From the NCBI GenBank assembly GCA_002070955.1, contig MWEK01000012.1:35514-99513 (forward strand): a DNA stretch of 64,000 nucleotides, read 5' to 3'. The notes beneath the pieces are model-generated. The model was not told the DNA's origin and searched no databases. It saw only the letters and a program-made list of their open reading frames with translations. The translations under genes and the position numbers were made by a program. The number at the start of each line of letters is the position of its first letter. Positions within the stretch are counted from its first letter, which is position 1. Below are positions 2,478-7,453 of the stretch, piece by piece. The DNA comes from Planctomycetes bacterium ADurb.Bin069. Lineage in GTDB: Bacteria; Planctomycetota; UBA8108; UBA8890; UBA8898.

Positions 2478-4577
2478 ATGAAAAGCGAAAAGGCGGCAAA
2501 TCCCGGCACGGCGCTGCTCCTCGCGCTGGCCGTCGCGGGCGCGCTTGCGGCCGCGCCGAGCCCCGGCGTCGATCTTGGGAGCCTGCTTGACGAAATGATC
2601 GACCGCGATGCCCTCGCCCGCGTCCCGGACCCGTTCTTTCTCTGCCGGCAGTCAAGCAGCTACGATCGCGACACCGTCGCGCCGGACAAGCCGGGCTGGT
2701 TCGCCAACTGGGACCGGAGCCAATTCGTGCGCGTCGAGGAGCGCGAGGGCCGCAAGGAATACGTCCTCCACGACGCCGACGGCCCCGGCGCCATCGTCCG
2801 CTTCTGGGCCACGTGGCACGGCCCCGGCGGCGGCCCGTTCTCCAACGGCACGCTGCGCGTCTACCTGGACAACGCCGCCGCGCCGGCCATCGAAGGCCCC
2901 GCCGCCGAAGTCATCAGCGGCGGCGCCGTCGTGGGCCCGCCCTTGAGCGATTCGGTCTCGCCGCGCACGCCCTACGCCAACCGCGGCCACAACTTCTACT
3001 TCCCGATTCCCTACGCTCGGCACTGCAAGATCACCTACTCGACGGCGGTGCCCGTGGATCGGGGCGCGAAGACCGGCGAGGCGCTCTACTACCAGATCAA
3101 CTACAGGACCTACGCGCCGGGAACGAACGTGCGGTCCTTCAGCATGGATCAGCTCGCGGCGCTGGGCGGGAAGATCGCGGCCCTGAGCAAGCGCCTCACG
3201 GCGCCGGAAGAAAGCCCGGCGCCGAACGTCCTGCGGTTTTCCGGGACCATCGAGCCCGGGAAGCGGATTGCCAGGACGGTCCCGGGCCCGGCCGCGATCC
3301 GCCGCCTTGCGGTGAAGATCGAAGCCGCCGACCCGGCCCAGGCGCTACGTTCCACGGTGCTGGAAATCAGTTTCGACGGCGAGCGGCGGGTGTGGTGCCC
3401 GGCGGGCGACTTCTTCGGCACGGGCTACTTCGTCAAGCCCTTCCGGACCTGGTACACCCAGGTGGACAAGGACGGCCTCATGCAGGCCTTCTGGATCATG
3501 CCTTGCGCGCAATCGGCGGAGGTCGCCTTCTGCAATCTCTGGCGGCAGCCCGTGACGCTGGCGGCCGTCGAGATCGGAAGCGGCCCTTGGTCTTGGGACG
3601 ACCGTTCGATGCACTTCTGCGCCTCGTGGCGCCAGTTGACGAAGGTCGACACCGGCCCCGACAAGGACATGACGGGGAAGGGCGCCTTCGACGTCAACTA
3701 CGTCGAGATTGCGGGCGCCGGCAGGTACGTGGGCGACACGCTGGTTCTCTTCAACGGCGCCAATGCGTGGTGGGGGGAGGGCGACGAGAAGATCTACATC
3801 GATGGGGAAGCCTTCCCGTCGCACATCGGCACGGGCACCGAGGACTACTACGGTTACGCGTGGTGCCGCCCCGAATTCTTCGAGGCGCCGTTTCACGCCC
3901 AGCCGTCGGGCGCCGGCAACCTCACGGCGGGCTTCTCGGTCAACTCGCGCTACCGCGGCCTGGATTCGATTCCCTTCGCCAAGGCGCTCCGCGTCGACAT
4001 GGAGCTCTGGCATTGGCGCAAGACGCGCATGAACTTCGCGCCGAGCGCCTTTTGGTACGCGCGGCCCGGCGGCCGCGCCAACGTGGCGCCCGATCCCGTT
4101 TCCGCGGCCCTGCCGGTGGCGCGGGAGATGGACGATGTGGTGGAGGTCGTGCGCGTGCCGGGCGCCATCGAGGGCGAGACGCTGAAGGTGGTGGAGCACA
4201 CGGGCGGCTCCTTCGAGGTGCAGACCATCGGCGATTTGGGCTGGAGCGGCCACCGCCAGCTTTGGTGGCTCGACGGCGCCCCGGGCGACAAACTCGTCAT
4301 CGAATTCCCCGCGGCGGAGGCCGGGCGGTATCGCGTCGAGGCCGAGCTCACGCAGGCCGTCGACTACGGCATCGTGCAGATGCTCGTCAACGGCGCCAAG
4401 GCCGGCGAGCCGATCGATCTTTTCGCCGACCGGCTCGCCCATTCCCGCGCGAACCTGGGCGCGTTCGAGCTGGCGGCGGGAGCCAATCGCCTGGAGGTGG
4501 TCATCACCGGCGCGAACGCCAAGGCGGTCAAGCGCCACATGTTCGGCCTGGACTTCCTCCTGCTGACGAAACTATAG
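2478..4577 (+). CDS. Secreted DUF2961 (GH172-like) domain protein
   Basis: ATG at 2478 preceded by GGAAAGGAGA; signal peptide. Conserved blocks [11 protein letters not shown]...[12 protein letters not shown]...[12 protein letters not shown] are shared with the paralog at 19203..21197 and are typical of DUF2961. Confidence 0.7.
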
Positions 4578-6950
4578 CGGAAGGCCGGGAGCCGCCGCCG
4601 ATTTCCCCGCCGAGATCGGCGGCTGCTCCGCGCCGTTCAGGTAGGCGTCGATGGCCGCCGCCGCCTTCTTGCCCGCTCCCATGGCCTCGATGACCGTCGC
4701 GGCGCCCGTGACGATGTCGCCGCCCGCGAAGACGCCCGGGATGTTGGTCATGAGGTTTTCGTCCACCACGATGTGGCCGTGGGCGTCGACCTTGAGCTCC
4801 GGCCACGACCGCGACAAGAGCGGATTGGCGCCGTTGCCGATGGCGCAGATGAGCTGATCGATCTCGATGACGTGCTCGCTGCCCTTGACGGGCACGGGGC
4901 GCCTGCGGCCCGAGGCATCGGGCTCCCCCAGCTTCATGACGATGCATTCGATGCCCGTGACCCAGCCCTCCTCGTCCCCGAGGACGCGCGTGGGGTTCGT
5001 CAGCTCCTTGAGCTCGATGCCTTCCTCGAGGGCGTGCTCGATCTCCTCGGCCCGGGCCGGCATCTCCTTGCGGGTCCGGCGGTAGATCAGGTAGACGTTC
5101 TCGGCGCCGAGCCTGAGGGCGGAGCGCGCCGAGTCCATGGCGACGTTGCCGCCGCCCACCACGGCCACGTTGCGGCCCACCAGGACCGGCGTTTCGTACT
5201 CGGGGAACCGGTAAGCCTTCATCAGGTTGACGCGGGTCAGAAACTCGTTCGAAGAGTAGACGCCCTTCAGGTTCTCGCCGGGGATGTTGAGGAAGTAGGG
5301 CAGTCCCGCGCCCGTGCCGATGAACGCGGCCGCGAAGCCCTCCCGGAGGAGGAACGGCACGGTCAGCGCCGCGCCGATGGGCTGATTGCACTTGAACTGG
5401 ACGCCGAGATCCTCCAGAAACTCGCACTCCCGGTGCACGATCTCCTTGGGCAGCCGGAACTGCGGAATGCCGTAGACCAGGACGCCGCCCGGGGAGTGGA
5501 GGGCCTCGAAGATCGTGACGCCGTAGCCCCGGAGGGCGAGATCGGCGCCGGCGGTCAGGCCCGCCGGGCCGGCCCCGACGACGGCCACGCGCTTGCCCTT
5601 GGGCGCCGGCCGGGTCTTGGGCTTGATGCGCCCCTGCGCGGCCTCGAAGTCGGCGACGAAGCGCTCCAGGCGCCCGATCGCGATGGGCTGGCCCTTCTTG
5701 GCCAGGACGCAGACGACCTCGCACTGCGTCTCCTGCGGACAGACGCGCCCGCAGATGGCGGGCAGGTTGTTGGTCTCGCGGATTTTGTGGGCCGCCTCCA
5801 GGAAGCGGCGCTGCTGGATGAGCTTGATGAAGGCCGGAATGGCGATGTTCACGGGGCAGCCGCCCACGCACGGCGCCGTCTTGCACTGCAGGCAGCGCAT
5901 GGCCTCGGCGACGGCCATCTCGGGCGTGTAGCCCAGCGCCACCTCGTTGAAGTTGCTCCGGCGCTCGTGCGGATCCTGCTCGGGCATCGGCACGCGCTCC
6001 TTGGCCTTCGCCGGGCGCGGCGCGCCCCGTTTGCGCGCGAAGTGCTCCGCCGCCCGGGCTTCCGCCTCCTTGTAGGTCCCGAGGCGCGAGAGGAGCAGGC
6101 CGAAGTTGACCTTGTGGCCGTCGAACTCGGGGCCGTCGACGCAGGTGAATTTGGTCTCGCCGCCCACCTCGACGCGGCAGCCGCCGCACATGCCCGTGCC
6201 GTCCACCATGATGGTGTTCAGGCTGACGATGGTGGGGATCGCGGCCGCGCGCGTCGCCTCGGCCACGGCGCGCATCATGACGGCCGGGCCGATGGCCACC
6301 ACGCGATCGATGCGGCGGCCGGAGGCGATCATGCCGGCCAGCGGCGTGGTGACGAAGCCCTTGGCGCCGTACGAGCCGTCGTCGGTGACGACGATGCACT
6401 CATCGCTCGTGGCGCGCATGCGGTCCTCCCAGAAGAGGAGGTCTTTCGTGCGGGCGCCGATGATGCTCACCACCGTGTTGCCGGCTTCCTTCAGGGCGCG
6501 CTGGATGGGGTGGACGGGCGCGATGCCCAGACCGCCGCCCACGAGGACCGCGACGCCGAAGTTCTTGATCTCGCTGCGGTGTCCCAGGGGGCCCATGACG
6601 TCGAGCAGGCGGTCGCCGACCTGGAGCGCATCGAGCTTGCGCGTGCCCGCGCCGACCAATTGAACGACGAGGGTGATCCAGCCTTCGGCGCGGTGGAAGT
6701 CCGCGATGGTGAGGGGAATCCTCTCGCCGTGCTCGTGCCCCCGCACGACGACGAACTGTCCCGGTTCGCAGTAGCGCGCCAGGACCGGCACGAACACCTT
6801 GAAGCTGACGATGTCCCGGGCCAGGGGCAGCTTCTCGATGATCTTGTTGAGCTCGGCGTCGGGGGTGTCCAGGATCGAGAAAAGCTTGCCGGGCTGGGCG
6901 TGGCACGCGCCGTGCGGCGCATGGGGATGATGGGCGGACGCGGCGGCCAT
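4572..6950 (-). CDS. NfnAB-like fused NADH-dependent reduced ferredoxin:NADP+ oxidoreductase (N-terminal FAD/NAD PyrK/SudB-like half, C-terminal GltD/SudA-like half with 2x[4Fe-4S] and FAD/NAD(P) sites)
   Basis: ATG at 6950 with AAGGAGAAACCGC upstream. The N-terminal half ([15 protein letters not shown]...RIPLTIADF...[23 protein letters not shown]) matches the NfnA/PyrK electron-transfer subunit. The C-terminal half ([45 protein letters not shown]) matches the GltD/NfnB small chain. Confidence 0.85.
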
Positions 6951-7012
6951 GCGGTTTCTCCTTGCGCAATGCCGGGCCGCGCCGGCGGCCCGGCGAGAGC
7001 TTTCTCAGCGGT

Positions 7013-7453
7013 TCAACGGGAGCCGTGGCCGGCCGGAGCGTGGAGTCCGGCGGCGGGCTCGGGCTCGCCGAGCAGCTTCCTGACCTCGACACGGATCTGC
7101 TCGGGGCGAACGGGCTTGTCGAGCACCTTGTCGGCCTTGATCCACGACCGCGCCTCGGGCGACCGGGCGCCGAAGGAAACGCCCGTCGTGGCCGTCACCG
7201 CCGTGAGCATGATCACCGGCGTCTCGGGATAGAGCTTCTTCAGGTGGTGGCAGAGGACGAAACCGGAGTCCTTCTCCTCCATCATGAGGTCGAGGATCGC
7301 CAGGTCGGGCCGCACCGTGAGGAGGGTCTCCTCGGCCTCGACTTGGCCGCCGGCGCTGACGATGTCGTAGCCCCGCCCCTGCAGGGCGAGAGTGAGCTGG
7401 TCGACGATGTCCGGATCGTCGTCCACAATCAGGATCTTCTTTTTTGCGTTCAT
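7013..7453 (-). CDS. Stand-alone response regulator receiver (CheY-like, no output domain)
   Basis: MNAKKKILIVDDDPDIV...LAILDLMM...PVIMLTA...K shows receiver-domain Asp and Lys motifs. The gene sits between hydA and the nfn-like gene on the same strand. Confidence 0.85.
   Translation of the reverse strand: MNAKKKILIVDDDPDIVDQLTLALQGRGYDIVSAGGQVEAEETLLTVRPDLAILDLMMEEKDSGFVLCHHLKKLYPETPVIMLTAVTATTGVSFGARSPEARSWIKADKVLDKPVRPEQIRVEVRKLLGEPEPAAGLHAPAGHGSR

Follow-up and report, generated by a model that had tools for sequence, protein, structure and literature searches.

The window examined here, a 64-kb stretch of contig MWEK01000012.1, has a guanine plus cytosine (GC) content of 68% and contains many spurious open reading frames (ORFs). 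Its minus strand carries an operon headed by rex, with the gene order rex-hydC-hydB::gltD-hydA-REC-nfnAB. The two genes at the 3' end of this operon are the subject of this analysis: a stand-alone receiver (REC) of 146 amino acids (aa) and a 792-aa fusion of the two parts of an Nfn transhydrogenase. A divergent operon on the plus strand encodes a HydS-like sensory [FeFe]-hydrogenase joined to a histidine kinase (HydS::HK) and a hybrid kinase with its own receiver domain (REC::HK). The locus is probably a Rex-controlled operon that balances H2, NAD(P)H and ferredoxin, coupled to an H2-sensing phosphorelay that includes the receiver. This reading is built on observed gene identities, conserved residues and gene order. 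What gives the locus its value is a conserved and uncharacterised cassette of H2 sensor, receiver and hybrid kinase; nfnAB and the receiver themselves are of ordinary kinds.

Judged by synteny, the receiver is a conserved companion of HydS::HK and REC::HK and not the orphan that the original prediction for this DNA had made of it. A protein search with the receiver returned 1585 matches, and the 120 that were listed are essentially all stand-alone proteins of 129-181 aa, mostly 129-152 aa. The 33 representatives that were aligned share 58-88% identity with the window receiver, and the aligned homologues come from metagenome-assembled genomes (MAGs) of Planctomycetota, Lentisphaerae, Myxococcales, Latescibacterota and Acidobacteria. 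In a profile search, the orthologues fell into few 50% clusters because they are so alike, and 106 representatives lay at E<=1e-30. For synteny, metagenomes were scanned with the family alignment, which gave 80 loci (L numbers below designate related loci in general), and neighbours were identified by tblastn with the window proteins; neighbour counts use the loci with enough flanking sequence, 60 upstream and 52 downstream. The upstream neighbour of the receiver is HydA in 51 of the 60 loci, HydS::HK in eight and HydB::GltD in one. Downstream, HydS::HK follows in 38 of the 52 loci, REC::HK in five, rex in three, Nfn in one and other genes in five. Loci with long flanks have the order rex-hydC-hydB::gltD-hydA-REC-HydS::HK-REC::HK-hydG on one strand. 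In most loci, the orthologue of the receiver gene is flanked by hydA and HydS::HK, a conserved gene order that strongly supports the proposed tie between the receiver and the HydS-kinase branch. No account of this receiver family alongside HydS kinases turned up in a literature search, and such an absence is not proof. In some related loci, another stand-alone receiver, which shares 36-38% identity with the first, lies between HydS::HK and REC::HK (L090 12538-12900, L091 8966-9274 and L126 12486-12866; also L131, L133, L136 and L148). The gap between HydS::HK and REC::HK in the window is only 18 nt.

The receiver is, to judge from its residues, a canonical phosphorylatable single-domain response regulator without an output domain. 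It matches the Pfam family Response_reg (PF00072) at 3e-17, scoring 63 bits where the gathering score is 30. Residues D11, D13, D55, K113 and P114 are invariant across 37 aligned sequences, D12 and T84 are nearly invariant, and the catalytic residues line up with their equivalents in YycF/PhoP receivers. A CheY-like protein of this length without an output domain downstream of hydA had been predicted, and exact coordinates, the Pfam match and the structural model all agree with it. The same prediction had singled out the phospho-acceptor aspartate for checking on an alignment; this residue is Asp55, invariant and kept along with the remaining catalytic set. AlphaFold (pLDDT 85) models a (beta-alpha)5 fold up to residue 128, followed by a low-confidence tail. 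In both alignment and model, a conserved insert of 7-9 residues splits alpha4 into two short helices. The family signature consists of DLMMEExDSGF after D55 and, in the insert, T90..F94..W104.K.D..DKP, and is invariant or nearly so in 37 sequences including those of Smithella and Syntrophorhabdus. An unusual relative was sought by Foldseek with the receiver model, and generic receivers alone were returned, the best solved structure being RR468 of Thermotoga maritima (E 1.4e-10, 34% identity). No specific NCBIfam family matched the receiver at its cut-off, the DVU0259/DivK-like model reaching 51 bits against 160. The tail of the receiver (7013-7075, minus strand) is disordered and contains His residues (HAPAGHGSR); in most members of the family the sequence closes with ...H-x.

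HydS::HK retains the H-cluster cysteine motifs TTCP, GPCIAKK and ACEGC, a C-terminal Cx2Cx4Cx16C motif and the H-box AHEVNNPL. In the proposed relay, HydS::HK would sense H2 and phosphate would move among HydS::HK, the 146-aa receiver and REC::HK, with the receiver most likely taking phosphate from one of the two kinases. Having no output domain, the receiver most likely acts as an effector that binds other proteins, or else shuttles or drains phosphate. Among the cassette proteins examined there is no DNA-binding output, so that transcriptional feedback on the operon by the receiver is not the obvious mechanism. The two kinases are encoded about 7 kb from the receiver, in the divergent rex2 operon (14471-17697) with hydG next, and their genes appear to have been inverted into that operon in the window lineage.

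The 792-aa protein carries an NfnA module at its N-terminus and an NfnB module at its C-terminus within a single ORF, and its Pfam matches are Fer4_20 (1.8e-42), Pyr_redox_2 (4.8e-34) and DHODB_Fe-S_bind (7.8e-13). Residues 33-308 match end to end both NfnS of Pyrococcus furiosus (5jca_S residues 8-281, 7.8e-98) and NfnA of T. maritima (4ylf_A residues 5-275, 1e-81). Residues 318-777 match T. maritima NfnB (4ylf_B residues 4-465 of 468, 1.5e-174) and P. furiosus NfnL (5jca_L, 3.2e-161), and the modules are joined by a basic linker nine residues long (aa 309-317). The [2Fe-2S] ligands of the NfnA module, D250, C255, C258 and C270 (motif ...FTCVDGPEF), are kept and are invariant in 13 homologues. 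Compared with the 5jca and 4ylf structures, this motif has four identical ligands and one non-ligand difference (G257, which is A in both structures); the ligand roles of the Asp-Cys3 set are those known from structures in the literature. In the NfnB module, Cys353, 356, 361, 365, 400, 404, 410 and 414 and the Glu407 of CPQE align with the [4Fe-4S] ligands. Most cofactor residues are invariant among the 13 homologues, and Cys404 and Glu407 are nearly so. Arg499 in FRLPK, likewise invariant among them, corresponds by alignment to R201 of P. furiosus NfnL, and the arginine at this position guards N5 of the bifurcating flavin adenine dinucleotide (FAD) (PMC10482914). An equivalent of Arg499 is also found in non-bifurcating Stn-type modules, and the residue is therefore necessary and not discriminating. 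The NfnA half scores 331 bits against NfnI and 176 bits against the Nfn paralogue 5vj7 (B chain). The NCBIfam model NF009414 (PRK12778) is matched over profile positions 1-750 of 752 with 1049.9 bits, slightly under the curated cut-off of 1103. Because both halves align over their full length, the cofactor ligands are kept and the score beats that of 5vj7, the protein is assigned as a putative classical NfnI-type transhydrogenase in a single chain, its activity being predicted by homology. The NfnA-NfnB fusion itself, as originally proposed, is confirmed: both modules align and all cofactor ligands are present. Assignment to Stn/NfnABC was considered and ruled out, the NfnA module being present and a NuoG part absent. 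The N-terminus of the protein (6860-6950, minus strand) is a His-rich extension of about 30 aa, in which Cys16 is nearly invariant in close homologues and absent in the Smithella protein.

The original prediction had taken a single-polypeptide Nfn to be unusual, and this view is not sustained. The fusion is a published architecture with its own NCBIfam model (NF009414), and has been described as 'Pattern B' in Clostridium autoethanogenum, C. ljungdahlii, Bacteroidaceae, Prevotellaceae and Fusobacteria (Liang et al. 2019, PMC6405883). A protein search gave more than 120 full-length homologue clusters of roughly 690-830 aa and 61-99% identity. When fusion was counted by a same-ORF test over 82 related loci, half (41/82) were true single-ORF fusions, spread over many phyla, and the remaining 41 were split. 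A single tblastn span was dropped as proof of fusion, as L031 and 40 other loci show a single span yet have split genes. Fused loci include Smithella, Syntrophorhabdus, Brocadia, Hydrogenedentota, Nitrospiraceae, Solibacteraceae, many Bacteroides/Prevotella and Murdochiella. In many of the split loci (L005, L006, L009, L012, L014 and others), nfnA and nfnB are in the same frame with one stop codon between them, and loss of that stop offers a simple route that would explain recurrent fusion. The combination of rex, a multimeric [FeFe]-hydrogenase and fused nfn in one cluster also has a precedent in C. autoethanogenum (PMC6405883).

The hydrogenase encoded upstream gives the fused Nfn a metabolic setting. 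HydA matches the NCBIfam model NF040763, 'NADH-dependent [FeFe] hydrogenase, group A6', with 833 bits against a cut-off of 765, and keeps the Fe_hyd_lg_C domain and the cysteines of P1, P2 and P3. The P1 motif is TSCSP in place of TSCCP, a change of the proton-relay Cys to Ser, and the same Ser is found in all 22 related-locus HydA genes whose P1 matched the search pattern. The Pfam domains of HydB are Complex1_51K, NADH_4Fe-4S, Fer4_20 and Pyr_redox_2, with no Fer4 dicluster domain. Its GltD module is closest to Bfu-type NfnABC/Stn (1.8e-108 for 9bov_A versus 1.6e-74 for T. maritima NfnB), and its 'RCLxC' cysteine motif (EARRCLRC) stands at the C-terminal end, after the Rossmann domains, apparently permuted. 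HydB matches 'sub-type I BfuB', an uncharacterised sub-type set out in PMC11406978. In the proposed scheme, HydB would have lost the ferredoxin-type dicluster domain and gained an NADP(H) module of the Stn/NfnABC type. Nfn would by homology catalyse Fd_red + NADH + 2 NADP+ <-> Fd_ox + NAD+ + 2 NADPH (Fd, ferredoxin) via the bifurcating FAD in its NfnB half, and may supply the ferredoxin link for a hydrogenase that would be connected to NAD(H) and NADP(H) and has no ferredoxin site. Jointly, hydrogenase and Nfn would reach the stoichiometry of a classical confurcating hydrogenase, which would provide a reason for recruiting nfnAB into the operon, and could balance H2, NADH, NADPH and ferredoxin.

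The reality of the genes in this GC-rich window was checked by codon-position GC and Pfam. GC at the third codon position (GC3) is 0.94 in nfnAB and 0.88 in the receiver gene, with second-position values of 0.47 and 0.43, and both genes resemble their neighbours. Because codon-position GC matches that of the neighbouring genes and the Pfam matches are strong, both ORFs are genuine genes and not chance ORFs. A Shine-Dalgarno-like AAGGA(G) also stands shortly ahead of the ATG of both. A consensus scan for promoters and terminators over 4000-14500 found two promoter-like sites only, both in the divergent rex/rex2 region, and predicted no promoter-like or terminator-like site in the hydA-REC and REC-nfn gaps. 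The sole terminator-like match on the minus strand falls inside the rex coding region, with none in any intergenic gap. A separate promoter or terminator between hydA and the receiver gene, which the original prediction had named as contrary evidence, is thus not predicted. As the sole operon-strand promoter is at rex and the gaps hold no terminator-like site, co-transcription from the rex promoter is the simplest reading, which we infer from the sequence. A Rex-operator-like palindrome with one mismatch to TTGTGAAnnnnTTCACAA, the sole one in the window, lies between the divergent rex genes. This box is inside the called rex2 ORF, so the true rex2 start is probably farther downstream. At three or fewer mismatches, no Rex box was found ahead of REC or nfn. 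The two divergent Rex paralogues (region 13666-13870) each head one hydrogenase-related operon. The REC-nfn gap contains a perfect 10-bp GC hairpin, which was rejected as an intrinsic terminator: it has no T-run, its z score against shuffles is -0.87, L001 has no stable equivalent (z +1.47) and the corresponding gap in L163 is 1 nt. A direct repeat, GAACCCGCAA, present twice in the hydA-REC gap, was set aside as a candidate binding site; the first copy alone is kept in L001. Rfam at gathering thresholds gave no known RNA element in 4000-20000.

Relatives of the locus place nfnAB beside the receiver in several arrangements. L001, with an Nfn 91% identical to that of the window, has the same gene arrangement. 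L163 (GCA_037135275.1, Nfn 78% identical) is colinear and reads hydA-REC-(1 nt)-nfnAB-(6 nt)-HydS::HK-REC::HK-hydG-hydE-hydF, an order from which it would follow that nfnAB was inserted inside the module and that the window lineage later inverted the kinase/maturase block. In this form, adjacency of REC and nfnAB is limited to a narrow clade with Nfn identity of at least 78%, probably of Planctomycetota. The order in L142 is hydC-hydB::gltD-hydA-REC-(5 nt)-nfnA-nfnB; Nfn is split there, and its NfnB part shows 55% identity. In Smithella and Syntrophorhabdus, the order is HydS::HK-REC-REC-PAS-HK-nfnAB with a fused Nfn, whose start overlaps the stop of the kinase, and no hydABC is found within 10 kb. 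By gene order, at least three separate events appear to have brought REC and Nfn together, and the Nfn involved differs in lineage and architecture from one to the next. That this happened three times, and with tight junctions, speaks for a functional link of Nfn to the signalling cassette. A further arrangement is found in L031 (4658-12346, Phycisphaerales CP070827), where genes for a NuoE-like protein, a NuoF::GltD protein (1039 aa) and a NuoG-like protein are immediately followed by split nfnA and nfnB. The NuoG-like protein has a molybdopterin remnant and no H-cluster domain. L031 is a hydrogenase-less relative of the window complex beside Nfn, Stn-like but with the GltD module on the F subunit.

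Several observations weigh against the reading of the locus as a Rex-controlled operon joined to a phosphorelay. The Rex-box match is statistically weak, as 31 of 100 shuffles give at least one match at the 3-mismatch threshold. By eye, the alpha-1 region of the stand-alone receiver is unlike that of the hybrid-kinase REC. In a high-GC organism, whose terminators may have no U-tract, the GC hairpin could reduce read-through. Homologues of Nfn with 64-73% identity are encoded by solitary genes in unrelated surroundings. Of the 52 receiver loci whose downstream flank is long enough, just one has Nfn beside the receiver; the association of REC with Nfn is therefore sporadic and might be an accident of gene order. 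Such an accident would mean that a housekeeping nfnAB landed here in a small clade, with its own transcript or by read-through, and has no tie to REC or H2 sensing. The stand-alone fused nfnAB of relatives, the single downstream Nfn, the 62-nt window gap with its hairpin and the wide distribution and mobility of fused Nfn (PMC6405883) are all in keeping with it. An accident is nevertheless unlikely given at least three origins of the adjacency (fused in the window clade, split in L142, and fused without hydABC in Smithella/Syntrophorhabdus), junctions that are 1 nt, 5 nt or overlapping, the position of the L163 nfnAB between REC and HydS::HK, and a hairpin that is neither significant nor conserved.

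The receiver might also be a mere phosphate sink or connector without direct effect on Nfn or hydrogenase, the true output being an unlinked DNA-binding regulator or Rex. Other systems offer established examples of single-domain receivers that serve as sinks or shuttles. Each locus has two kinases and two to three receivers, the cassette proteins examined have no DNA-binding domain, and a sigma-54 response regulator is encoded near the L142 module. These features make a sink conceivable, but it is on balance doubtful: receiver identity is 58-88% among aligned representatives from MAGs of several phyla, the receiver gene is retained beside enzyme genes in nearly all loci, and the family insert, which lies on the alpha4-beta5 output face and has invariant T90, F94 and W104, points to a surface for a dedicated partner. 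That the 792-aa protein is not a bifurcating Nfn and is instead an NADPH:ferredoxin, sulfide-dehydrogenase-like or glutamate-synthase-small-chain-like oxidoreductase is very unlikely. Source annotations do read 'NADPH-dependent glutamate synthase', its NF009414 score is 1049.9 against 1103, and P. furiosus NfnI originally bore the name sulfide dehydrogenase. Set against these points are the full-length match to the characterised T. maritima NfnAB and P. furiosus NfnI, scores far above those of 5vj7, glutamate synthase small chains and dihydropyrimidine dehydrogenase (DPD), retention of the Asp-Cys3 [2Fe-2S] site, both [4Fe-4S] sites and the Arg beside the bifurcating FAD, and the absence of a GltB large subunit among the locus genes examined. 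The operon and phosphorelay reading is preferred. A more specific proposal, in which HydS::HK, the receiver and REC::HK form an H2-sensing phosphorelay that has no DNA-binding output and the receiver, at its end, binds NfnAB (fused or split) and/or the GltD-fused HydABC to tune activity post-translationally, is speculative and rather improbable. If true, a group C sensory [FeFe]-hydrogenase would for the first time have a defined output, and an electron-bifurcating enzyme would for the first time come under two-component control.

The coordinates of the features are collected in Table 1.

Table 1. Genes, protein modules, gaps and candidate control sites of the two divergent operons in the 64-kb window.
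Feature	Position	Strand	Evidence
nfnAB fusion, 792 aa	4572..6950	-	ORF, translation, Pfam, NCBIfam NF009414, PDB matches
NfnB/NfnL-like module, aa 318-777: two [4Fe-4S], b-FAD, NADP(H) site	4620..5999	-	4ylf_B, 5jca_L alignments
NfnA/NfnS-like module, aa 33-308: a-FAD/NAD(H) domain and [2Fe-2S]	6027..6854	-	5jca_S, 4ylf_A alignments
REC-nfn gap, 62 nt	6951..7012	-	GC hairpin 6971-6994; AAGGAG 7 nt ahead of ATG
Stand-alone receiver, 146 aa, HydS::HK-associated single-domain response regulator family	7013..7453	-	Pfam PF00072, conserved residues, synteny
hydA-REC gap, 52 nt	7454..7505	-	Sequence; equal 52-nt gap in L001
hydA, catalytic [FeFe]-hydrogenase subunit, 573 aa, P1 motif TSCSP	7506..9227	-	Fe_hyd_lg_C 1e-95; NF040763
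hydB, NuoF-like flavin mononucleotide (FMN)/NADH subunit with GltD-like FAD/NADP(H) module, 1097 aa, start position approximate	9257..12550	-	Pfam
hydC, NuoE-like [2Fe-2S] subunit	12519..13001	-	Pfam 2Fe-2S_thioredx 9.7e-52
rex, first gene of the operon	12998..13666	-	Pfam and NCBIfam Rex
Sigma-70-like promoter TTGACA-17-CATAAT	13710..13738	-	Upstream of rex; sole such site on minus strand in 4000-14500
rex2, heads divergent operon; called ORF	13798-14514	+	
Rex-operator-like palindrome, 1 mismatch to TTGTGAAnnnnTTCACAA	13809..13826	.	Between divergent rex genes; sole one in window
HydS-like sensory [FeFe]-hydrogenase domain with histidine kinase (HydS::HK)	14471..16531	+	Pfam Fe_hyd_lg_C, FeS, HisKA, HATPase_c; true start probably ATG near 14525
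REC-HisKA-HATPase hybrid kinase (REC::HK)	16549..17697	+	Pfam, translation

Beyond these features, hydG falls within 14471-19162 (plus strand) and hydF is farther on at 24087-25334 (plus strand). At its 3' end, nfnAB overlaps a convergent DUF2961 gene (2268-4577, plus strand) by 6 bp (4572-4577), with both stops in the palindrome CTATAG and no terminator between the two genes. A DUF2961 paralogue at 19203-21197 (minus strand) stands on the other side, so that the two paralogues flank the hydrogenase/signalling region. A 3-keto-disaccharide hydrolase/GDSL protein is encoded at 497-2398.

The cassette of HydS::HK, receiver and REC::HK travels with one class of multimeric [FeFe]-hydrogenase and, in three settings, with Nfn. 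For sensory [FeFe]-hydrogenases linked to a histidine kinase, the role entered in HydDB is 'undetermined' (PMC5037454). The three-protein set makes this role directly testable, as H2-dependent phosphotransfer to the 146-aa protein. The combination of Nfn with a hydrogenase that has no ferredoxin domain and carries an NADP(H) module suggests a two-enzyme equivalent of classical confurcation. Such a route would bear on fermentative H2 production in Planctomycetota and syntrophs.

Among known systems, the Pattern B Nfn of C. autoethanogenum and C. ljungdahlii (CAETHG_RS07665) resembles the window protein in being one chain of about 760-790 aa with NfnA followed by NfnB, and in C. autoethanogenum the fused nfn is likewise found downstream of rex with multimeric [FeFe]-hydrogenase genes (PMC6405883). 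C. autoethanogenum belongs to the Firmicutes, whereas the window is probably from Planctomycetota, has a receiver gene between hydA and nfn and a GltD-fused HydB, and its Nfn has the His-rich N-terminal extension. T. maritima NfnAB (4YLF) and P. furiosus NfnI (5JCA) consist of two subunits, whereas the window has one chain with the same ligands. In BfuABC(T) of sub-types I and V from Hydrogenedentota and other phyla, DPD_II and FAD/NAD(P) domains replace the B3/B4 ferredoxin domain, as in the window HydB (Zheng and Huang 2024, PMC11406978). The same paper lists Planctomycetota among the carriers, and these clusters share with the window the P1 Ser (TSCSP), common in the subtype, and kinase-bearing group C sensory hydrogenases beside A3 genes. 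Unlike in the window, no stand-alone receiver, REC-kinase hybrid or Nfn is mentioned for these clusters in sections 7-8 of the paper or in the passages reached by a term search (PMC11406978). Stn/NfnABC (8OH5, 9BOV, 9N5U; PMC10482914) has a GltD-like module and a NuoE/NuoF-like core that resemble HydB. The GltD module of Stn is on a NuoG-like subunit without an H-cluster, whereas in the window it is on the NuoF-like HydB and HydA retains the H-cluster cysteines. On the signalling side, RR468 of the T. maritima HK853-RR468 pair (3DGE) is also a stand-alone receiver, and the window receiver differs from it in the insert that splits alpha4 and in a disordered tail ending in His. HoxBC/HoxJ/HoxA of Ralstonia eutropha (HydDB group 2b, PMC5037454) similarly couples a hydrogenase-like sensor to a kinase of the histidine type and to a response regulator, all encoded among hydrogenase genes. 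The Hox system uses a [NiFe] sensor and the DNA-binding HoxA, whereas the window locus has an [FeFe] sensor joined to its kinase in one polypeptide and a receiver without a DNA-binding domain.

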